Assembly: GCA_964603675.1 (NCBI GenBank)
Contig: CAZRVS010000006.1
Location: forward strand, 19,587-83,586
Reading direction: 5' to 3'
Length of the DNA stretch: 64,000 bases
Source of the DNA: an uncultured Candidatus Bathyarchaeia archaeon
GTDB lineage: Archaea > Thermoproteota > Bathyarchaeia > Bathyarchaeales > Bathycorpusculaceae
The translations under genes and the position numbers were made by a program. The notes under the pieces are model-generated. The model was not told where the DNA came from. It was given only the letters and a program-made list of their open reading frames with translations, and ran no database searches. The first letter of the stretch is position 1. Every line of letters starts with the position of its first letter. Positions 36,384-63,916 of this stretch are shown piece by piece.

Positions 36384-38537
36384 CTAGTAGGCGCAGAACC
36401 AATAATCTCCGCGAAGAATATGAGGCGCTGCGTTCCAGAAGACGGCCACAAACACGTGTCCTGTGTTCACATATTTTTTCGGAATCGTTAGCGAACCGCC
36501 GCTAAAGTCCCAAACATTGTGAAGCATTCCTGGTTGGAAGTTGATCATCTTGCCAGTGCGTATATTGTAACGAACGCTTGGGTTTCTGTAGGGCTGAATT
36601 CCCGTGACATCTATGACTGCGCCTAGCCAGTTGTTCGGTTCGAGCCCTGTGGTTCTAGTCCAGCCTTCGCTTGTCCAACCATCTTCACCTGGTTCAACGT
36701 CATCAAAGAAGCCGATTTCTGGAATTTCAATGTCATCGATGTAAATTCCTTGTTCGTTGTATGCTCCGTCAGTCCAGTAGACGAAGTATAGGTCTATGTC
36801 GTGTCCAGCAAAAGCCGTTAGATCCATTTCTTCTTGATAGTATCCTGGGCTGAATCCTGTTAGGGCATACCATTTACCAGCAGAGTAGTAGTCCTTTGGC
36901 TCTCGCCCATCTGGTGTGTTCGGATTATCTTGTTCGTGAGGTAAGGTTGAAGTTGTTTCAAGTCCTTCAAGGGTCGTCCACTCGTCGACCGTCTTGTCGT
37001 ATACTTCCACATATGCATAGTCCCAATCCTGTTCAATTTCATAGAAAGTATAAAACATCAGAGTTGCGCCACCGATCGGAATCGAGAACGTTTGACCCAG
37101 TTTTCGCCAAGCCCAGTTGCCCATGCCTCCATACCAGTGATAATCTCCGCTGTAGGCCGATTGCCCAGATATGGCGTCCCCTTCGTAGAGGAAATTGACT
37201 TTTTTTCCTGCTGGAGTGAACCAGAATTCCCAATAGTTCACGGTGTAGGGTTGAACTGTCCCAGGCCACAGAGATGCTTGCCAACTGAATCCTCGATTGA
37301 ACTCCATACCGATCCACCAGTTCCAAAGGAAATATTGAATTGAATAACCCCACGTGTCAGTTGAAGGAATATCTAAACTGAAGTAGCCGTATTTGCCATT
37401 TCCGAGGGATGTATCGTCGATGTAGTTGGCGATGGCCCAGTTATGGAAGACTGTATCAAAAGTGATCGCGTATCCGAGAGAATCGAGTGTATCTTCAATT
37501 CCTTCAATGCCGTTGAGTGGGTTTTGCACAAGTTGTGAAATAAAGTTTGCTCCACCATAGTGTTCAGAGAGATATAGGGTGAACAGGTAGCTGGCTCCAT
37601 AGTCTTCTAGCCCGCCACCCCAGAAGGTCAGGGAAGTGAATGGGTGATAGGCTAAGTAATTTACAATATGGTCCTGTGGATGTCCGTAGCCGCATAGAAA
37701 TCCAGCGAAATCTGAACATCCTTCATTAATCCAGTCATCCTCATCAGAGTCTATATCGAAATGGATTAGATGCTGGAATTCATGTGCCACAACGCCCTCA
37801 TACAAATATGGACGGTACGCAGGGCCTCCCAATGGCGGATTCGGTCCTAATCGCCATGTCAACTCGTACGTGTCAATGTGAATAATGTTCGCATCGTTGA
37901 GTTGACTAACTGCTGACGAGAAGTATCCAGCAATGTAGAATTCTGCTGTCTCAGGAGACCAAAATATCTCATCTCTAATGTTAAAAATCAATATGTCTAT
38001 CTTTGTGTTGCCTGCCGGCCGCTCATTTGGCATGCCGAAGTAGGTGGTGTCAGTTGGATAGATTACCTCGTCAAATTGTTCCAGTATGTACGTCAGGTTT
38101 TCACGGGATATGATATCATGATATCCTTGCCAAAGCCAAGAGGTGCCAGTGTCACTCCAAGGGTAGAAGAAGTGGAAATTTCCTTCAGCATCTTCATAGT
38201 CCGCGACAACAGTTGCGTTTGTCAATGTGATTGAATCGTTCAGTCCAATCCATATTCTTCCATGTTCTCCTTCATACACCAACTCAAAATCTTGTGCATA
38301 TTCGATGCCGAGATAGTCGTCATCTACCATTATGGTCCAGGGGTTCCCAGTGTCTGGCTCCATATTTCCATATTTTAACAAATATGCTCTGTTGTCAATT
38401 TTCGATGTGCCACAAATCCAATCCAAATCTCTTGAAAACGACTGTTCAGTTTCTGCTTGCGCAACCTGAACGAACGCCAACGAAAAGCTTGCAACAAGCA
38501 CCGTAATAGCAACTATTGAAAATAGTTTTTTATTCAA
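36384..38537 (-). CDS. secreted zinc metalloprotease, M6/InhA-like
   Basis: Signal peptide, then VAHEFQHLIH (HExxH) followed by WINEGCSDF. Confidence 0.7.
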   Translation of the reverse strand: MNKKLFSIVAITVLVASFSLAFVQVAQAETEQSFSRDLDWICGTSKIDNRAYLLKYGNMEPDTGNPWTIMVDDDYLGIEYAQDFELVYEGEHGRIWIGLNDSITLTNATVVADYEDAEGNFHFFYPWSDTGTSWLWQGYHDIISRENLTYILEQFDEVIYPTDTTYFGMPNERPAGNTKIDILIFNIRDEIFWSPETAEFYIAGYFSSAVSQLNDANIIHIDTYELTWRLGPNPPLGGPAYRPYLYEGVVAHEFQHLIHFDIDSDEDDWINEGCSDFAGFLCGYGHPQDHIVNYLAYHPFTSLTFWGGGLEDYGASYLFTLYLSEHYGGANFISQLVQNPLNGIEGIEDTLDSLGYAITFDTVFHNWAIANYIDDTSLGNGKYGYFSLDIPSTDTWGYSIQYFLWNWWIGMEFNRGFSWQASLWPGTVQPYTVNYWEFWFTPAGKKVNFLYEGDAISGQSAYSGDYHWYGGMGNWAWRKLGQTFSIPIGGATLMFYTFYEIEQDWDYAYVEVYDKTVDEWTTLEGLETTSTLPHEQDNPNTPDGREPKDYYSAGKWYALTGFSPGYYQEEMDLTAFAGHDIDLYFVYWTDGAYNEQGIYIDDIEIPEIGFFDDVEPGEDGWTSEGWTRTTGLEPNNWLGAVIDVTGIQPYRNPSVRYNIRTGKMINFQPGMLHNVWDFSGGSLTIPKKYVNTGHVFVAVFWNAAPHILRGDYWFCAY

Positions 38538-39598: not shown

Positions 39599-40843
39599 TT
39601 ACACAATGAAAGTCAGTGCTACACCTGTGATTAGAGGTATTGCAAGATTATCGTTCACTGGCAACGGCAGACACTCTATTATCATGGCTATCGCCGCGCC
39701 TATCATCGCACCTAGAGGGAATATGAAAAACAAACCTCCAAAAAAGGCAAAAAAGAATCCGATTGTTGACCCTACTAAAGTCTTACCTTTATTGAAAGGC
39801 AACGTTGGCCCCCGAAATAGGCCACCAAAAAATGACGCGGCGCTATCTCCAAGTGCAAAGATCGCGATAGCCGCGCTACTCGTCGGAGCAGGGAAGACCA
39901 GTAACGTAAGTAAGATGCCTAGGGCAAAAAATATAGGAGCAGTTGCGAATTCATGAAGTTCCGTTTGCGATACTGCGCGATGAGTTACTGAGGAAATTAA
40001 GGGCAAGTGTCTTTTTTCCATTCTTCCAAACTCGGATATCACGTACAAGATGGTAACGGTCAGGGTTATCAAAGCAAACGTGTAAAAGCCAATCAAGCTG
40101 GATACGGCCGGAACGAAAAAAGCAGAGGCGTGAACTGCCTCTCGAAAAATGTCATTTTTGGAGGGTGAACTTTCTTTCTTTGGCATTCCGCCCACTAAAG
40201 GCATTATATCCAGCAGCTTTCCCGTTACAACGTTATCTGCTCTAGTGCGTATCAAAAAGTCAGGGTTATACCCTATCTTCAGCGCTTTCCGAAGGAACAT
40301 TGATGCGTTGTTTCGATCATCAGCCACCACGATGCAGTCTTTTGGGGTTATCCCTTCCGTTTGCAAGATTCTTGATAGAACCTTGAACTTTCCATTATGC
40401 TTTATGACGTCACCCCAAATCTCACCTGTCAAAACGTCATTTTTAGTTTCTAGCTCAAGACCGAAAGCAAAGTCCGCTTTGAGTGTGCTGGCTAGATCCG
40501 TGACAACTACGCTTGGTAATCCAGAACTTATCAAAGCAGTTTTCCAGCCTTGAATCCTAAGTTTCTCAAAGACCCCTTGCGCGTCAGGCATCAAAGGAAC
40601 TTTTTTAAGAATTCGCACCAGCTCTTCGATTTTGATGCCCTTGAAAAGTTTGAAAACGTGTTTGAGAGCAGATTCTAATGAGATCAGGCCGAGTTCATAA
40701 AGAAAACCGTAAAGGATGATCCTTACCAATTGTGAAAAACCAAGAGATTTGCCGATTTCTAAAAAGTAGCGGTTCTTGGGTATTAGCACTCCTTCAACAT
40801 CGAAGATCACGAGTCTTGATTTGTTGTTTTGTAGCGTCGTCAA
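39599..40843 (-). CDS. fusion protein: HAD (SerB-like) phosphatase domain plus a polytopic dolichol/phytol kinase-like (CTP-transferase family) domain
   Basis: The N-terminus has LVIFDVEGVL (DxD/E HAD motif I) and VVADDRNN. The C-terminal ~190 aa are hydrophobic, with ALGDSAASFFGG ... KGKTLVGS. Confidence 0.65.
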   Translation of the reverse strand: MTTLQNNKSRLVIFDVEGVLIPKNRYFLEIGKSLGFSQLVRIILYGFLYELGLISLESALKHVFKLFKGIKIEELVRILKKVPLMPDAQGVFEKLRIQGWKTALISSGLPSVVVTDLASTLKADFAFGLELETKNDVLTGEIWGDVIKHNGKFKVLSRILQTEGITPKDCIVVADDRNNASMFLRKALKIGYNPDFLIRTRADNVVTGKLLDIMPLVGGMPKKESSPSKNDIFREAVHASAFFVPAVSSLIGFYTFALITLTVTILYVISEFGRMEKRHLPLISSVTHRAVSQTELHEFATAPIFFALGILLTLLVFPAPTSSAAIAIFALGDSAASFFGGLFRGPTLPFNKGKTLVGSTIGFFFAFFGGLFFIFPLGAMIGAAIAMIIECLPLPVNDNLAIPLITGVALTFIV

Positions 40844-40964: not shown

Positions 40965-42311
40965 TTACTGAGCTTGAGCGCAAATGTAATTCTTGTTTTG
41001 CAATTCTAGGGGGCATCCTCCGCCGCAGATTTGCAGTTGTGGGCAGTTCTTGCATTTCGGCTCCACATATCCCCTCTGTCTTATCTGTGTTGCAAGGGGA
41101 TGGTTCCATATTTTTTGCCAGTCATCCTTAAGGATGTTTCCGAGGCTTTCGAAGTAGCTTTGACAGGGGTAAACGTCGCCGTTTGGCCCGACACACATGT
41201 TTATCATTGCGGCTGTGCAGAATTTCACGCCCAAGCCGAGTTTAACAGGATCAAGACGGCAATATTGAGTTGGCGTGTACCATAGAAACTTTAACTCGAG
41301 TTCGTTGGCTTTGTCGCGGATCTTGGGCAAAAGTTCGTTTAGCCTTTCCAATGGCATAGCGAATTCTTCGCTTATGGCGCTTGCCTTTCCAGAGTAGATT
41401 AGGCTGTTGCATCCAAAAGCTGCAATGTCGAGCTCTTTCAGGAAATCTATGGTTTCCAAAAAGTCGGGAGCGTTGTATTTGCTGAGGGTTGTGTTCGTGG
41501 TTACGTATATTTGCGTTTTAACAGCGTTTTTTATTCCGGCCACGCTTTCCTTCCAGTTTCCTTTAGCGCCAGTCATGAAGTCGTGAACCTTGGGCTTATG
41601 GGACTCCAAGGTTACTTGAACAAAGTCCAGTCCAGCTTTTTCCAAAGTTTCAACATACGCTTTGTCCTTTAGTCTTCTGCCGTTTGTGACGAGGCCGGTG
41701 ACCATGCCCTTGTTCTGCGCGTAAAGCAACAGTTCTGGCAGGTCCTCGCGTAAAGTGGGTTCGCCCCCAGTAAAGGTTAAGATGAAGATACCGATCTGGC
41801 TTAGAGTGTTTATCACTTCTTTCCATTGCGCCGCAGTTAGCTCTGGTGTCTCGTGAGGTCCGCCAGAGTAGCAGTGAATGCAGTTGTTTTGGCATCTAAA
41901 AGTGAGCGCCATGTCCATGCGCAATGGTGCTGAAAGCTGTTGGCTGAAGGGCTCAACGCTCTTTACGTCGAGGAAGGATATGGGACAAACCTTCTCAGTT
42001 TGGGCCAGCGTGCCAATCGTGTAAACGAGTTTCTCATAGTCTTCCTTTGCTTTCTCCGGGCCTACCCTGTACATGCGATGGATCTTTTTCAAGACCGCGT
42101 CTTCAGGCATTCCCTGCATGAAATAGTAGGCATAGGCCGTTGCCGTTTCATTAAGATGAAGAACAGTGTTAGCATTGATTACTATGATTCCCAACCCGCC
42201 TGCTTCAACGCGGAGCTGAAGCGCCAAACCTGCAAATTCATCCTTTCCCCTATAGGTATAACGTCCAATGGGAATTTCGGGCGGACGCAAAATCTTCCTA
42301 AAGAAGCTCAT
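40965..42311 (-). CDS. radical SAM/SPASM domain peptide-maturase-like enzyme with an N-terminal PqqD/RRE-like domain
   Basis: CQNNCIHC (CxxxCxxC), GGEPTL, and the C-terminal CTAAMINMCVGPNGDVYPCQ ... CKNCPQLQICGGGCP (SPASM). The N-terminal VLHLNETATAYAYYFMQGMPEDAVLKKIHRMYRVGPEKAKEDYEKLV resembles PqqD. ATG 42311 lies 2 nt after the upstream stop, with GGAGGTG 11 nt upstream. Confidence 0.88.
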   Translation of the reverse strand: MSFFRKILRPPEIPIGRYTYRGKDEFAGLALQLRVEAGGLGIIVINANTVLHLNETATAYAYYFMQGMPEDAVLKKIHRMYRVGPEKAKEDYEKLVYTIGTLAQTEKVCPISFLDVKSVEPFSQQLSAPLRMDMALTFRCQNNCIHCYSGGPHETPELTAAQWKEVINTLSQIGIFILTFTGGEPTLREDLPELLLYAQNKGMVTGLVTNGRRLKDKAYVETLEKAGLDFVQVTLESHKPKVHDFMTGAKGNWKESVAGIKNAVKTQIYVTTNTTLSKYNAPDFLETIDFLKELDIAAFGCNSLIYSGKASAISEEFAMPLERLNELLPKIRDKANELELKFLWYTPTQYCRLDPVKLGLGVKFCTAAMINMCVGPNGDVYPCQSYFESLGNILKDDWQKIWNHPLATQIRQRGYVEPKCKNCPQLQICGGGCPLELQNKNYICAQAQ

Positions 42312-42313
42312 TT

Positions 42314-43939
42314 TCAGCCTACACCTCCGCCTGCACAAGCGCAAGCACATGATACACAAGCACACGCGCAAGCGCATGCTGCGCATGCACAAACGCAACT
42401 TGCATCGTGACGTGCTGGTTCTGATGATGCCTTGGCTGCGGGCGCTGGCAGGATTGCGTTGGCGAACTTTTCCAGATTGGCCACGATGTTGTTCGAAGTT
42501 TTTTCCACGGCAGTTGCAATGTTGTTTGCAAAGTCAGCGCCTGGAACTGTCGGCGGCTTAGCTGATTGGGCGGGCGTCTCCACGTTTGGCTTGTACGTAG
42601 GATTGGGGTGATAATGTTGATAACTGTACCAGTACCAGAACCAAAAGGGACTAGGCTCGAAGGCTCTGTCGCGAAATGCAGTTTGTGTGCGGGATTGATA
42701 GTTTGGATCAAGCAAAAGCCATAACAGTTGCTCATCATAAGCTTTTGAAGCTAATTCAGGCGTCCCAGCCTGTTCCACTTGTTCCCATGCCTTAGCCGCA
42801 ATCTTCCTGTAGTAGTCTACAGTGTCACGTCTGCAGTATCCCCGCAGTTTTTGTTCCACAGTATCTCTTAGAAACATTACTGTTTTGGCTAGCTTTTCCT
42901 CGTCAAGGGTCCCGTCGTTTTTTATTGCGTCGAGAAAGTCGATTTCATAGTATCTAAGCTGCGTTTCTTCAGTTCCAGTTTTTTTCTGAAAAGATGGCAT
43001 AATCTTCAATTTGAGAGCGGGGTTTGTGGATTCGACCCATACGGCCCTTTTCTGTAAAAGGCTGTAAAGCATCTCTGTAACCAATTGCGTTGGTTTCATG
43101 TCTAACAGGTAAGATGCTTCCACCGCCGTCAAACCACGACTTATTCCCAAAGTTTCCATGCTGACCTTAGGCGTCAAATACGGTCGCTTGCGGACCGCAA
43201 CAACCCCGATGCCAACTATAACCACGAACATTCCGATTATCAAAAAGGCAGGCCAGTACCGTTGCAAAAAGACAAGTGCACCAGAAGGCGGCTCGTATTT
43301 CTGCACATAACCTTCTGGAAAAGAAATTCCCACAGGGTATTGCATATCTGGAACAAGACTGTCTTTCTGCCAGTAAACTACCAGTCTCCCATCTTCTACC
43401 GATGTGTTGTTCCAGAATACTTCAGTTGTTTTCACCATTTCTTGAGTAACGTTGGGCGGCAAAACAATGGAAATGCGAAGATCGGAGACTGGAACAGGCC
43501 ACCAAACTGGAATGAATAGCATTCCGTCGTTGCCTGGATTTTTCTCATCCGGCACCACCATGCCTGCAACGTTAGTGATAAGTGTGAACCAGATGGTTTG
43601 TCCAGCTTCTAAGGGTGTGCTGAGGCTAACGTTCGCCCTGTAATTGTCTCCGCTTGACGCGTCTGTAGCTACTAAGCTGTTGCCATACTGGTCTTTGGCT
43701 TCGCCTATGGTGAAGTCGCGCACAGGTTGACCTACGTAAACGAAGTTTATGTTTTTGCCAGAATCAAGCCTAAGTGTAATGTTGTAGAAGAGGTCTATTG
43801 ATCTGTTCTCGTTTATCCATATTTTCACCCATTGATGATCGATGTAATACACTCTTTCTTGTGCTGAGGCAACACTTGCAAGCATTGCAAAAATGAATAT
43901 TACGGATAATGCAATTAGTGGAAGACGCCTATTCACCAT
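42314..43939 (-). CDS. DUF2207-like membrane protein with a C-terminal Cys-Ala repeat tail
   Basis: A signal peptide and a ~200-aa ectodomain are followed by a TM helix (WPAFLIIGMFVVIVGIGVVAV) and a ~290-aa predicted cytoplasmic region ending CVCACAACACACACVSCACACAGGGVG. Confidence 0.75.
   Translation of the reverse strand: MVNRRLPLIALSVIFIFAMLASVASAQERVYYIDHQWVKIWINENRSIDLFYNITLRLDSGKNINFVYVGQPVRDFTIGEAKDQYGNSLVATDASSGDNYRANVSLSTPLEAGQTIWFTLITNVAGMVVPDEKNPGNDGMLFIPVWWPVPVSDLRISIVLPPNVTQEMVKTTEVFWNNTSVEDGRLVVYWQKDSLVPDMQYPVGISFPEGYVQKYEPPSGALVFLQRYWPAFLIIGMFVVIVGIGVVAVRKRPYLTPKVSMETLGISRGLTAVEASYLLDMKPTQLVTEMLYSLLQKRAVWVESTNPALKLKIMPSFQKKTGTEETQLRYYEIDFLDAIKNDGTLDEEKLAKTVMFLRDTVEQKLRGYCRRDTVDYYRKIAAKAWEQVEQAGTPELASKAYDEQLLWLLLDPNYQSRTQTAFRDRAFEPSPFWFWYWYSYQHYHPNPTYKPNVETPAQSAKPPTVPGADFANNIATAVEKTSNNIVANLEKFANAILPAPAAKASSEPARHDASCVCACAACACACACVSCACACAGGGVG
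42332..42397 (-). repeat. coding region for the (Cys-Ala)n tail, 10 Cys in 22 residues
   Basis: The codons are heterogeneous (TGC/TGT; GCA/GCT/GCG), so the repeat is maintained at the protein level and is not a DNA microsatellite. The tail is a local GC-rich island. Confidence 0.8.
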
Positions 43940-44271
43940 TTCGGTTCCTCAGCTACCTCAAAAGTCTGTCCACAATAAGGACAAGTGGCGTATGGCACGC
44001 CCGAAACAATTTTGATTTGGTCAGCGTTAACCGAGGCTGAACAGTTCGGGCATTTGAGCGCCACTGCCTTCATCTGCCCAGAAACTTCCAATCTTTGAAC
44101 TATCGTCTTCGGCTTTCGGGTTATATAATAGGCTATTCCGAAACCAACAATGAACAACATGCCCGCAACAATAAGCCTTGTAAGTTCGTAAACCGACGCA
44201 AGAGCAAAGATTATACCGAAAAAGAAAAGAACTGCAATCGCGATTGCACCCAACACTGTTTTGAGACTCAT
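43933..44271 (-). CDS. membrane protein with a C-terminal zinc ribbon
   Basis: Two TM helices followed by CPNCSASV ... CPYCGQTF. Its stop overlaps the start of the next gene (ATGGTGA). Confidence 0.6.
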   Translation of the reverse strand: MSLKTVLGAIAIAVLFFFGIIFALASVYELTRLIVAGMLFIVGFGIAYYITRKPKTIVQRLEVSGQMKAVALKCPNCSASVNADQIKIVSGVPYATCPYCGQTFEVAEEPKW

Positions 44272-44445: not shown

Positions 44446-45540
44446 TCACGTTTTCTCAGCTTGCTTTCTTGGGTGCATTGTAGCATACGTGGCAGTTATG
44501 GCAAGTAAGGTGAGTGCTGCTCCCGAGATTGCAACTAAAACCAGTAGGGCTTCCGCCACGTTACCGATTAGCGCACCATCAGGCAACGCGCCTTTCCAAG
44601 TGATCATCACATCCGAAGTTAGCTCGCTTACGTCACCTTCGTATGTCAAGCCATATAACCAAGCACCAGTCTTCATCAGTTCTCCCAGCCTTAGGTCTAT
44701 TTTGGAGATCTCGCTGTTCGAAAGCCAAGTGCTCAACACGCCTTCTTCACCGGAAGTATGATACGTTGTCAGTCGAAGTGGATAGTATTCGTAACTTGAC
44801 TGACTAATGTTAGTTTTAGTGAGAAGGAAGAGGTTTATGTTTGTGTTTCCACCCAAGGGGCTGGTTATTGCCATAGGATAGTAGAGAAAGCTTGTATTGA
44901 ACCAGTAGAGTATGGGCTCAACGCTTTTTTGCTCTGCAGAAACGGTTATTATGTCCAGAACGTAGTATCGGAATCCCCTCGCCATGTATTCTTGAACCAC
45001 TGGCTCAAAGTTCCGAAGAGAAACCTCTTGGGTAATGTTGTTATTTTTCAGAAAACTTTTCATCCAATCCACAAGCTCTGACGAATCACTAGCCATTACG
45101 ATTGTGATGTCGTGCGAGCCAATCTTCTCATGGAAGACAATTTGTGGAGCTTCAATTGCTCCACCTCGACCCATAAAATTGTCCTTGTATGTCTGGCGTA
45201 GCTTTTCATTGAGAATCTCCTGAAGTATTTCGAACGATTTGAAACTCGCAAGCTCCACTCTGCTGGGGTTTGACGGCAAAGGAAGTATTTCCACAACAAA
45301 AGTTTCGCCAGTTGAAAATACGTCGGTGGAAAGAATCAGTATTTCCTCTTTCCCATCCCAAGCGATGATTGCTTTCTGTCCTGGCTCATATATCGAAATA
45401 TCCGTGCTTACGGGGATCAGCCCCCTGTCAGCCTTGACAACTGAGATAGTGGCCGTTAGAAAAATTAGAACTGAGATCAGAAACATTATTTTTGATGTTG
45501 TCTTCAAATAGACCCCAAATAGAATTTGAAGTTGTTCCAT
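44446..45540 (-). CDS. DUF2330-like exported protein with a C-terminal membrane anchor
   Basis: N-terminal signal anchor, then ISIYEPGQKAIIAWDGKEEILILSTD ... VVEILPLPSNP (DUF2330-like onset) and a C-terminal TM helix. Confidence 0.55.
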   Translation of the reverse strand: MEQLQILFGVYLKTTSKIMFLISVLIFLTATISVVKADRGLIPVSTDISIYEPGQKAIIAWDGKEEILILSTDVFSTGETFVVEILPLPSNPSRVELASFKSFEILQEILNEKLRQTYKDNFMGRGGAIEAPQIVFHEKIGSHDITIVMASDSSELVDWMKSFLKNNNITQEVSLRNFEPVVQEYMARGFRYYVLDIITVSAEQKSVEPILYWFNTSFLYYPMAITSPLGGNTNINLFLLTKTNISQSSYEYYPLRLTTYHTSGEEGVLSTWLSNSEISKIDLRLGELMKTGAWLYGLTYEGDVSELTSDVMITWKGALPDGALIGNVAEALLVLVAISGAALTLLAITATYATMHPRKQAEKT

Positions 45541-61190: not shown

Positions 61191-61265
61191 GGGCGGGTAG
61201 ATCAGCTTGGTATGATCGCCACGTTGGCATCGTGGAGGCCGCGGGTTCAAATCCCGCCCCGTCCA
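61191..61265 (+). tRNA. tRNA-Ala (anticodon GGC)
   Basis: A 75-nt cloverleaf folded by hand. Acceptor stem GGGCGGG/CCCGTCC includes G3:U70. D stem GATC/GATC. Anticodon stem CCACG/CGTGG with loop TTGGCAT. T arm GCGGG-TTCAAAT-CCCGC. Discriminator A. No encoded CCA. Confidence 0.93.
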
Positions 61266-61493
61266 CTCCATTTTCTTTTGGAAAAAAGCCTTGACTGAGA
61301 AATTCGAAAAGAATTTTGTAGTCTCTTCCCAAAAAAGTAAGTACAACAAATCAAGCAAAATGCAGATTGAAAACGGCACAAGGCAATGCTTATAACAGCT
61401 GAACAGTCTATGCTAAAAAAGAATCTGATGCCAAACCTAATACATGTCATTGTTGAATAATGAAAAACCAACGCGAAAAAAGGAGGTGAACAA

Positions 61494-62482: not shown

Positions 62483-63916
62483 TTGAAGTTTTCTTTTGTC
62501 AATGCAGGTCCTTATGAAGGATTAGATGAGCGTGAAGCAAGAAAATTTATTGCTTCATTTCCACCTTTAGGCATTTTATATTTGGCTTCTGTGCTCGAAG
62601 AAAGAGGTATCGAGATTTCTGTCTTGGACCAACCAGCGCAAGGTTTTACAATAAATGAAACAGTTAACTGGATAGAGAAAGAAAACCCTGACATTCTCGG
62701 TTTCTCAACATTCTCGAGTTCCGGTCGCACAGCCGCATTAATCAGCGAAAAGGTTAAAGAAAAAAACCCGAACGTCGTTGTCGTATTCGGCAATCATTAC
62801 GCAACATTCAATTCTGAACGGATTCTCCGAAAATACCCTTCCGTTGATATCACGGTTCGAGGAGAAGGAGAAAATACAGTGGTTGACCTTGTCAGTTGCT
62901 TGGCGAACAAAGGTAAGCTCAAACACGTTCAAGGAATTACCTTCAGAAATAACGAAAGCATTATTTCTACCCCTGAGCGTCCACTGATAAGGGATCTGGA
63001 TTCTCTTCCTATCCCTAAGCGTAATTTATTGGACATAGACTATCATTCGGTGGTTGCTGGGGTAAATGTTGCTCCAAAGAAGTTCACAAGTATTGTCTCT
63101 TCACGTGGATGCGTTTATAGATGTCGCTTTTGCAGTTGCACTCAGTTTGCTCGCAACGCATGGAGACCAAGGTCTGTAGAAAATGTTCTGGAAGAACTTC
63201 ATCTTCTTGCTAGTGAAGGATACAAACAGTTCATTTTTGTAGACGACAGTTTTACGCTGAACCAGAAAAGAGTAATCAAGCTCTGCAGAGCTATGAGAAA
63301 GGAAAAAATAGATATGGAATGGATCTGCGAAGGGAGAGTTAACAATTGCTCCTATGAAATGTTGTATGAAATTGCAAAGGCAGGTTGTAAACTCCTATAC
63401 TTTGGCATTGAAAGCGCCAATCAAAGAATTCTAGACTACTATGACAAACAAATAACACCCCAGCAGTCCAAAACTGCTGTGAAAACAGCCAGGAAAGCTG
63501 GAATAGATGTAATAGTTGGGTCTTTTATTGTAGGAGCCCCAGACGAGACAAAAGAAGAAATTCGCAACACAATCGAGTTTGCAAAACAAATTCCGATAGA
63601 TATTCCCCAATTCAACCTATTGGGTATTTACCCTGGAACAGACCTTTGGAGAGAATTCGAAATGAAGGGTCTTATAAATGTAGAAGAGGACTATTGGGAA
63701 ACAGGTATTGCTGTTTCTGAGATATGTTCAACATTAGTACAGCCTAGCGAAAGCAGACAAATGATTCATCAAGCCTTTTATGATTTTTTCCGTCGTCCAG
63801 ACTTCATATTGAAGCAAATAGCAAGAACACTGAGAAGTTCCTACCGAACTCAAATCATACTTAACAGCCTGAGCGGAATAGGGGCAATCCGAGAAAATAT
63901 CCGTAATGTTGCGTAA
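62483..63916 (+). CDS. B12-binding domain radical SAM protein
   Basis: The N-terminal Rossmann-like PPLGILYLASVL ... DILGFS is followed by SSRGCVYRCRFCSC (CxxxCxxC). TTG start. Confidence 0.88.
   Translation: MKFSFVNAGPYEGLDEREARKFIASFPPLGILYLASVLEERGIEISVLDQPAQGFTINETVNWIEKENPDILGFSTFSSSGRTAALISEKVKEKNPNVVVVFGNHYATFNSERILRKYPSVDITVRGEGENTVVDLVSCLANKGKLKHVQGITFRNNESIISTPERPLIRDLDSLPIPKRNLLDIDYHSVVAGVNVAPKKFTSIVSSRGCVYRCRFCSCTQFARNAWRPRSVENVLEELHLLASEGYKQFIFVDDSFTLNQKRVIKLCRAMRKEKIDMEWICEGRVNNCSYEMLYEIAKAGCKLLYFGIESANQRILDYYDKQITPQQSKTAVKTARKAGIDVIVGSFIVGAPDETKEEIRNTIEFAKQIPIDIPQFNLLGIYPGTDLWREFEMKGLINVEEDYWETGIAVSEICSTLVQPSESRQMIHQAFYDFFRRPDFILKQIARTLRSSYRTQIILNSLSGIGAIRENIRNVA

Follow-up and report, generated by a model that had tools for sequence, protein, structure and literature searches.

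In the sactipeptide and ranthipeptide systems (AlbA-SboA, SkfB-SkfA, CteB-SCIFF and PapB-freyrasin), a radical S-adenosylmethionine (rSAM) enzyme with a CX3CX2C motif, a SPASM domain with two auxiliary clusters and an N-terminal PqqD-like recognition element (RRE) for peptides that are made by the ribosome and modified after translation (RiPPs) is encoded beside its Cys-rich substrate, a peptide of 30-60 amino acids (aa). QhpD is a SPASM enzyme that puts several Cys thioether bridges into QhpC, which gives no secreted product and is part of a functional protein. QhpC is the small exported subunit of quinohemoprotein amine dehydrogenase, with Cys-to-Asp/Glu links. In the HXS system (HxsA-D), a His-Xaa-Ser repeat protein is matured by co-encoded rSAM enzymes, and HxsA is a cleaved, periplasmic antiphage effector (PMC13128918). 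Here we describe a gene pair on a stretch of 64,000 nucleotides from an uncultured Candidatus Bathyarchaeia archaeon (assembly GCA_964603675.1, contig CAZRVS010000006.1, positions 19,587 to 83,586; below, the window), in which a 541-aa membrane protein ending in a Cys-Ala tail is followed by the gene of an rSAM/SPASM enzyme. Both tail and enzyme, as well as the coupling between them, are kept together in archaea and in bacteria, and this conserved pairing in two domains of life points to an undescribed protein modification system. We consider it probable that the tail lies in the cytoplasm and serves the maturase encoded next to it as a substrate in cis, with thioether cross-links as the most likely outcome.

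Conservation of the Cys-Ala tail

The 541-aa protein ends in ...HDAS-CVCACAACACACACVSCACACA-GGGVG, followed by the stop codon. The original prediction had placed a Cys-rich tail at exactly the 22 residues with ten Cys that constitute the core (the coordinates of the features are collected in Table 1). These Cys fall into CxC blocks of three, four and three, with CxxC as the joints. Because there is only one Cys in the other 513 residues, the Cys density of the core is not a matter of chance composition. The mixed codon usage that had been described is present (TGC five times, TGT five times, GCA four times, GCT four times and GCG once). Of the GC-rich island claimed for this region, the island itself holds, with 56% GC in the core and 46.9% in the open reading frame (ORF) of the tail protein, whereas the value of ~40% given for the window was slightly too low (42.9%). 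Tandem Repeats Finder detects one imperfect period in the tail DNA (27 nt, 2.6 copies, 75% matches). It corresponds to a 9-residue unit, CACACACVS / CACACAGGG, and suggests an old internal duplication, not a microsatellite.

A word-indexed search retrieved more than 1,779 close homologues of the tail protein, the best 120 of which (66-74% identity) all carry ten Cys at fixed positions, in the pattern C[VI]CAC[AH][AST]CAC[AV]CACV[SG]CACACA[GS]GG... A scan of one genome per GTDB species gave at least 80 loci, all from Bathyarchaeia except two or three evidently mislabelled bins. Together with locus L001 and the window, 80 of these loci provided a set of 82 tail sequences, and the exact Cys pattern is present in 75 of them. 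The seven exceptions comprise two contig ends, one frameshift in a long-read metagenome-assembled genome (MAG; L078) and four variants: in three related species the first Cys is replaced by Ser, and one species has one CA unit fewer. The original prediction had reckoned with an assembly artefact or with orthologues devoid of the tail; neither was encountered, and every complete orthologue carries it, at a length that is constant within each lineage.

At the DNA level, 74 distinct tail sequences encode an almost identical peptide, and synonymous sites are saturated: every Cys column contains both TGT and TGC, and every Ala column all four codons. Pairwise codon differences amount to 35,297 synonymous vs. 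4,306 non-synonymous in the tail, compared to 13,555 synonymous vs. 31,479 non-synonymous in the 20 codons just upstream. Strong purifying selection acts on the tail peptide, and therefore slippage and assembly artefacts are excluded, in agreement with the earlier claim that the repeat is conserved as protein. An origin by slippage of the hexanucleotide TGYGCN, by mis-assembly or as neutral low complexity could draw on the imperfect 27-nt periodicity of the DNA and on the frameshift inside the tail of the long-read MAG mentioned above. However, independent assemblies in their thousands, archaeal as well as bacterial, encode the same peptide with saturated synonymous variation, and its length is fixed within lineages, which leaves this explanation a vanishingly small probability.

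The tail-protein family numbers thousands of sequences. A HMMER search over 1.84 billion cluster representatives yielded 554 representatives, at the 50%-identity clustering level, with E ≤ 1e-3, and 156 with E ≤ 1e-30. Three classes of tail can be distinguished. Class (i) is the archaeal 10-Cys form. In class (ii), found in many representatives with 26-35% identity to the query, a Gly/Ser-rich linker is followed by CACACACAGCACACAGGGR with 7-8 Cys. This class belongs to the Anaerolineae (Chloroflexota), with more than 4,731 proteins and with Leptolinea tardivitalis, Leptolinea sp. HRD-7 and Thermanaerothrix as cultured carriers; the Anaerolineae tail is identical in 109 of 119 sequences. Class (iii), PPSCACACACVSCACACACAGGGGCT, is rare (five proteins from a homologue search with the GGGGCT tail class). 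Korarchaeota and Methanofastidiosa are the other named carriers. The fewest Cys are present in the korarchaeal tail CACASCACACAGGGR (5 Cys) and the most in internal tails (11-12 Cys). The core measures 15 aa in Anaerolineae and 11 aa in Korarchaeota, and the tail proteins range from 520 to 770 aa. In the proteins P0155 (L090:5001-6980) and P0178 the internal Cys-Ala block CHCVCACVSCACVCACVSCACACASGGGF, with its 11-12 Cys, is followed by a further domain of ~90 residues; in the P0155/L090 variant the rSAM gene still overlaps the stop codon.

Among 84 full-length representatives with less than 50% mutual identity, the mean column identity is 0.81-0.95 in CACACAC..CACACAGGG vs. 0.1-0.7 elsewhere in the protein. 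By a wide margin, the protein is best conserved in these representatives at the core CAC.CAC..CACACA.GG. A shorter core, CAC..CACACA.GG, is kept family-wide, and the register always consists of CxC blocks joined by CxxC. In an alignment of 83 sequences the invariant columns are P161, P208, W407, C526, C531, C533, A534, C535, A536 and G538. Because both conservation and invariant columns peak in the tail, we regard it as the functional centre of the family. The core is near-identical between Bathyarchaeia and Anaerolineae, although the bodies of the proteins share only 25% identity.

The radical-SAM/SPASM enzyme

The coupling to an rSAM enzyme proposed in the original prediction was borne out. 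A SPASM gene encoding a putative PqqD-like domain starts with an ATG at 42311, 2 nt past the TGA stop codon of the tail gene, and the two genes are adjacent across lineages. The distance from the tail stop to the rSAM start lies between -11 and +23 nt in 66 of 67 loci. The rSAM gene adjoins the tail gene in all lineages looked at, with unlike flanking genes: in Anaerolineae (L082 as well as L084, which belongs to AP024710.1, the complete genome of Leptolinea sp. HRD-7), in the bacterium with the class (iii) tail (L085), in Methanofastidiosa (L086), in Korarchaeota (L087) and in the archaea with internal tails (L090 and L091). Relatives that possess only the N-terminal domain and lack the tail, which serve as negative controls, have no rSAM neighbour. 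When Bathyarchaeia are compared with Anaerolineae, identity amounts to 45% for the enzyme (1e-124), 25% for the tail protein (1e-39) and 31% for a small protein encoded upstream (8e-20). The enzyme is thus better conserved than the body of its presumed substrate, and judged by these similarities the Anaerolineae trio is homologous to that of the window. Across the Bathyarchaeia loci the enzyme is 59-84% and the tail protein 48-74% identical.

The codons of the terminal GGGVG contain GGAGGTG (42322..42328), the Shine-Dalgarno sequence of the downstream rSAM gene. They serve this second purpose where the intergenic gap is 0-3 nt, and a separate Shine-Dalgarno sequence is present where the gap is at least 9 nt. 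Of the 74 sequences, 65 use GGA as tail codon 24; GGG is also kept where a separate Shine-Dalgarno sequence exists, and in bacteria. By its sequence, the rSAM gene is translationally coupled to the tail gene.

Since the TGYGCN repeat contains no stop codon in any forward frame, the rSAM frame is open upstream through the tail (window 42312..42398, minus strand; TTG at 42398, reading MRLCMRSMRLRVCLC...). A false N-terminal extension of the enzyme is sometimes annotated by gene callers, for example in L084 (9623-11086, 487 aa). A programmed frameshift or a fusion of tail protein and rSAM enzyme was ruled out, as spacing and frame offset differ between loci.

The SPASM cysteines of the enzyme form the complete 7-Cys motif for auxiliary clusters (C-x12-G-x4-C ... 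CxxCx5Cx3C) and are kept in all lineages. The sole Pfam match in the N-terminal 126-140 residues is PqqD, a RiPP recognition fold; two Anaerolineae orthologues exceed its gathering score (23.4) with 26.0 and 29.0 bits, and the L001 enzyme stays below it at 16.6 bits. The matches lie at the same position in the enzymes of the window, L001 and Anaerolineae, and the alignment is conserved. According to a profile search, the nearest sequences in the PDB are SkfB (2e-31), PqqE (3e-27), BlsE (1e-22), SuiB (5e-19), CteB (7e-11) and anSME (1e-7). The top NCBIfam models are NirJ2, AhbC, AhbD, PqqE, GeoRSP and MftC, but no NCBIfam model reaches its cutoff and all matches are far below. The same holds for the curated maturase models (SkfB 81 of the 300 bits needed, AlbA 74 of 850, StsB 71 of 625). 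PADLOC gives only generic matches to the viperin rSAM core for the enzyme, and none for the tail protein and the small protein. By its motifs and domains, the enzyme seems to bear the hallmarks of a peptide-modifying SPASM maturase.

Architecture of the tail protein

We analysed the architecture with an AlphaFold2 (AF2) model built from a deep alignment (mean predicted local distance difference test score, pLDDT, 81.5); a shallow alignment had modelled the C-terminal half poorly. The predicted domains are listed in Table 1. The model and the hydropathy profile agree with the single internal transmembrane (TM) helix of the original prediction, with a signal peptide or TM segment at residues 5-24 and one TM helix at about residues 221-250. 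They would make the protein a type-I membrane protein with a cytoplasmic tail. The cytoplasmic side, also predicted originally, is favoured by the RKRPY sequence after the sole internal TM helix according to the positive-inside rule, by a zinc-ribbon insertion in the adjacent domain of a relative (see below) and by the cytosolic Fe-S enzyme as the partner. The cytoplasmic domain opens with a helix-helix-β-hairpin (GLTAVEASYLL...), the second most conserved region of the family. A helix is indeed predicted at the place of the leader-like helix noted before (residues 467-496, pLDDT ~70, moderate family-wide column identity of ~0.4), and its PGADFA motif is common to the Bathyarchaeia and Anaerolineae proteins; its role as a leader would be an interpretation. 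The linker that follows is Gly/Ser-rich in bacteria. Residues 500-541, which include the tail, are predicted to be disordered (pLDDT ~35).

Could the tail be a membrane element, i.e. a C-terminal tail-anchor helix or a patch for multi-site S-lipidation (acyl or prenyl groups), with an unrelated or only indirectly related rSAM enzyme? Over 19 residues its mean Kyte-Doolittle hydropathy reaches 2.0 or more, a level like that of the real TM helix of the protein, and therefore TM predictors (including DeepTMHMM) may misplace it in the membrane. Its 22 residues would fit a membrane span, and a gene for a polytopic membrane protein often follows the cassette in Bathyarchaeia. On the other hand, with 15 aa in Anaerolineae and 11 aa in Korarchaeota the core lacks the length for a membrane span, and AF2 predicts disorder and no helix in the tail; a TM helix was rejected on these grounds. 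A plain anchor would need neither invariant alternating Cys and Ala nor a dedicated rSAM/SPASM partner, and no acyl- or prenyl-transferase is conserved in the cassette. We consider a membrane element quite improbable.

In a Foldseek comparison the best matches in the PDB were eukaryotic ribophorin I/Ost1, with its luminal domain, and M1 aminopeptidases, with their N-domains. The ribophorin I/Ost1 match (E 7e-11, 443 aligned columns) has a TM-score of only 0.29. The β-sandwich, the TM helix and the cytosolic helical domain are also common to ribophorin I/Ost1 of the oligosaccharyltransferase complex. In terms of predicted structure this likeness is an architectural lead and no evidence of membership. 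The tail protein matches no Pfam or NCBIfam family at E ≤ 0.01, and the isolated tail has no match in Pfam, NCBIfam or PADLOC down to E ≤ 10.

Table 1. Features of the tail-protein cassette in the window (positions refer to the window).
Feature	Position	Strand	Basis
Tail-bearing membrane protein gene, 541 aa	42314..43939 (including stop codon)	minus	ORF
Signal peptide or TM segment, N-terminal, residues 6-24, then ASA-QE	43868..43924	minus	hydropathy; AF2 helix 5-20
Extracytoplasmic β-sandwich domain (predicted), residues 30-210	43310..43852	minus	AF2 pLDDT 95-98; Foldseek
Single membrane-spanning helix (predicted), residues 225-250, then RKRPY	43190..43267	minus	hydropathy and AF2 (221-250)
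Cytoplasmic globular domain (predicted), residues 258-430	42650..43168	minus	AF2 pLDDT ~90
PGADFA...helix, candidate leader-like segment, residues 466-497	42449..42544	minus	AF2 helix 467-496, pLDDT ~70
Variable Pro/Ala/Ser linker, residues 498-514	42398..42448	minus	sequences; non-synonymous changes predominate
Cys-Ala core CVCAC-AA-CACACAC-VS-CACACA, 22 residues, 10 Cys	42332..42397	minus	sequence and family alignment
GGGVG C-terminus; GG near-invariant across the family	42317..42331	minus	sequence, codon alignment
Radical-SAM/SPASM enzyme, 448 aa, putative tail maturase	40965..42311	minus	Pfam Radical_SAM 4.2e-25, SPASM 2.8e-11
PqqD-like domain of the enzyme, residues 43-96	42024..42185	minus	sub-threshold Pfam match
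CX3CX2C motif of the enzyme, RCQNNCIHC	41871..41894	minus	sequence
SPASM domain of the enzyme, residues 365-424	41040..41219	minus	Pfam
Small membrane protein, 112 aa, two N-terminal TM helices and C-terminal CxxC...CxxC zinc ribbon	43933..44271	minus	ORF; weak zinc-ribbon matches
HAD-phosphatase with polytopic membrane domain, uncertain cassette member	39599..40843	minus	HAD matches

The cassette and its genomic context

In Bathyarchaeia the gene order is small zinc-ribbon protein, tail protein and rSAM/SPASM enzyme wherever the contig permits, with variable flanks. The stop codon of the small protein gene, the first of the cassette, overlaps the start of the tail gene. This gene is present upstream in 76 of the 81 loci listed, missing only at contig cuts. 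It is not universal, being absent in L085 and L090. In the tail protein of Methanofastidiosa (P0280, L086:6001-7647) a zinc ribbon (CPNC...CDYC) is inserted into the cytoplasmic domain. This fusion provides a functional (Rosetta-stone) link to the small upstream gene, whose product would probably be an accessory subunit on the cytoplasmic domain.

The cassette is a stable gene set in at least 80 species representatives of Bathyarchaeia, and it holds no conserved protease or exporter in any lineage examined. Because of this absence, release of the tail as a peptide is improbable. The order of a recognition helix, a linker and a Cys-rich core beside an enzyme with rSAM and SPASM domains and a putative RRE would also suit a true RiPP, in which the membrane protein would be a giant leader or scaffold from which the modified tail is cut before its release or export, and long leaders exist in other RiPP classes. 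However, this is no RiPP-type short precursor with a cleavable leader and a protease or exporter: besides the missing protease and transporter, the substrate is a protein of 520-770 aa with a conserved body of ~510 residues that is predicted to be folded and membrane-anchored, with an extracytoplasmic domain. In addition, the tail is internal in some members, with another domain after it, and the stability of the cassette in Bathyarchaeia is not that of a patchy biosynthetic island. A released product appears quite improbable to us.

The gene for the HAD-membrane protein comes after the rSAM gene at ~35 of 80 loci in Bathyarchaeia, and no other lineage has it there. Its membrane half has no Pfam match even at E ≤ 10, so that Pfam gives no support to a dolichol-kinase-like lipid enzyme, and this candidate was dropped. 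Just upstream of the cassette lies a DUF2330 protein (44446..45540, minus strand; Pfam 3e-10), which has a signal peptide and, at the C-terminus, a TM helix. Neither this protein nor AlaRS, both considered as partners, is kept at other loci.

In Anaerolineae the maturase gene is directly followed by a second rSAM paralogue (L082:10059-11237 and L084:11104-12264) and then by a class-I methyltransferase. The paralogue has lost the CX3CX2C motif and all SPASM cysteines and has kept the PqqD-like N-domain; from these losses it is apparently a pseudo-enzyme or a chaperone. Some Bathyarchaeia MAGs contain two paralogous whole cassettes on different contigs (L035 and L077, L046 and L079, L008 and L051).

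Elsewhere in the window, a secreted HExxH metalloprotease of 717 aa with an InhA-like MAM domain (Pfam 5.8e-22) is encoded at 36384..38537 (minus strand). A tRNA-Ala(GGC) at 61191..61266 (plus strand) is the sole RNA gene in the window according to ARAGORN and Rfam. An open frame with CX3CX2C near 63110 (plus strand) is possibly another radical-SAM gene.

Proposed modification of the tail

We propose that the enzyme docks upstream of the tail through its PqqD-like domain and that the tail would be modified in cis on the full-length protein. By analogy with the nearest characterised enzymes, the most likely chemistry would be the radical formation of thioether bridges from Cys sulfur to carbon. 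The invariant Ala (also Val, Ser and Gly) of the opposite CxC block may act as the acceptors. This would yield a hairpin or meander made rigid by cross-links, which may bind metal as well. In a (CA)n-xx-(CA)n hairpin of even register, Cys would face Cys, an arrangement suited to metal binding or disulfides. If the hairpin were shifted by one residue, each Cys would face an Ala of the other strand, as in a thioether "zipper". Speculatively, the invariance of Ala fits an acceptor role or tight packing better than simple metal chelation.

Several points weigh against a cross-linked tail. Adjacency of the genes and the presence of an RRE-like domain are circumstantial support, and in the enzyme of the window the PqqD match is itself sub-threshold (13.8 bits, E 0.076). 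The best NCBIfam scores are those of the tetrapyrrole enzymes NirJ2, AhbC and AhbD (1e-40 to 1e-35), not of peptide modifiers. We know of no sactipeptide or ranthipeptide with CxC spacing or with a substrate of ~500 aa, and thioether formation is one among several SPASM reactions. Moreover, the invariant Ala could reflect packing and not acceptors, and, given its Kyte-Doolittle hydrophobicity, an association of the tail with the membrane is conceivable.

The chief alternative is a tail that stays unmodified and forms a poly-thiolate ligand site, either metallothionein-like (Cu/Zn/Cd) or for an Fe-S or other metal-sulfur cluster, where the rSAM/SPASM enzyme would use the tail as a cluster or sulfur scaffold or as a partner, or act on another substrate. 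The CxC and CxxC spacing and the 45% Cys in the tail would be appropriate for such a site, and the alternation would gather the thiols of a strand on a single face, with every Cys on the same side of a β-hairpin or meander. The lineages that carry the tail are all anaerobic, and anaerobes are rich in Fe-S proteins; the best family scores of the enzyme are those of the cofactor-biosynthetic NirJ/Ahb proteins. However, metal-binding tails and metallothioneins normally vary at non-Cys sites, whereas here archaea and bacteria alike have invariant Ala. The enzyme has a putative PqqD-like domain for peptide recognition and goes with the tail, not with the other parts of the protein, and the range from 5 to 12 Cys between lineages is awkward for one defined cluster. 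We regard an unmodified ligand site as unlikely, if worth keeping in mind, and prefer the reading of a tail cross-linked by its maturase. A more specific structure, in which the rSAM-processed tail is a thioether- or thiolate-laddered β-hairpin that serves as a built-in cofactor or metal-cluster site at the cytoplasmic face of a ribophorin-I-like single-pass membrane protein of widespread sediment anaerobes (Bathyarchaeia, Anaerolineae, Korarchaeota and Methanofastidiosa), would be a protein-derived structure not known before; it is put forward here as a tentative idea with a rather low chance of being correct.

Should the proposed modification take place, a large membrane protein would undergo radical-SAM chemistry of the RiPP type at its end, and (CA)n-xx-(CA)3-GGG would be added as a new substrate motif. 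The laddered hairpin, if it exists, would define a class of its own among RiPP-like modifications, one that acts on large membrane proteins instead of peptides. Of the sediment anaerobes that are uncultured or grow slowly, Bathyarchaeia and Anaerolineae rank with the most abundant, and they share a widespread cassette for which we found neither a curated family nor literature. Since the cassette occurs in cultured strains of Leptolinea and Thermanaerothrix, the system can be tested directly. For annotation it is relevant that gene callers sometimes extend the rSAM ORF into the tail and that hydropathy-based TM predictors may call the tail a helix.

Comparison with known systems

We found no paper in the literature describing the pairing of this tail protein with an rSAM enzyme, and no curated Pfam, NCBIfam or PADLOC model describes it. 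The comparison of the window enzyme with the sactipeptide and ranthipeptide maturases reveals the same CX3CX2C rSAM domain, SPASM domain with its two auxiliary clusters and a putative N-terminal PqqD-like RRE, as well as a gene position beside a Cys-rich substrate, and SkfB is the best match in the PDB. Unlike their short peptides, the presumed substrate here is the tail of a 541-aa type-I membrane protein, with CxC spacing and invariant Ala, in a cassette that lacks a protease and an exporter. No NCBIfam model of those systems comes near its cutoff, and the thioether is proposed here by analogy.

QhpD and QhpC set the precedent for thioethers in a polypeptide that stays within a functional protein. 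In contrast to the tail protein, QhpC is small and exported, and no sequence relationship to the window proteins was detected. The HXS system, with a small accessory protein and two rSAM paralogues, resembles the Anaerolineae cassette, which consists of a small protein, the tail protein, the rSAM enzyme and its paralogue; it differs in the chemistry of the repeat, and the Bathyarchaeia cassette is stable and no variable defence island. A function in defence by analogy to HXS was rejected, as PADLOC gives no support and the cassette is stably kept in at least 80 Bathyarchaeia species representatives.

The order of signal peptide, β-sandwich, TM helix, cytoplasmic domain and low-complexity C-terminal tail is also that of DUF2207/YciQ-like proteins (PF09972, PF20990), and some databases name homologues "DUF2207 domain-containing". 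In our searches, however, the window protein has no Pfam match at E ≤ 0.01 and only the unrelated DUF2651 at E ≤ 1 (E 0.65), and DUF2207_C matches a bacterial member with E 0.047 and only 13.8 of the 33 bits needed. A Gly-rich tail, in place of Cys-Ala, is typical of DUF2207 proteins. The high Cys density and the CxC and CxxC motifs also occur in metallothioneins and in the Cys-rich tails of metallochaperones; in the tail protein, unlike in these, there is strict conservation of the register and of the residues other than Cys, the motif is fused to a large membrane protein, and the rSAM partner is obligatory. Maturation by an rSAM/SPASM enzyme of the RiPP type is itself known, and the novelty of the system would lie in its new substrate motif and in the large membrane protein that would serve as the substrate.

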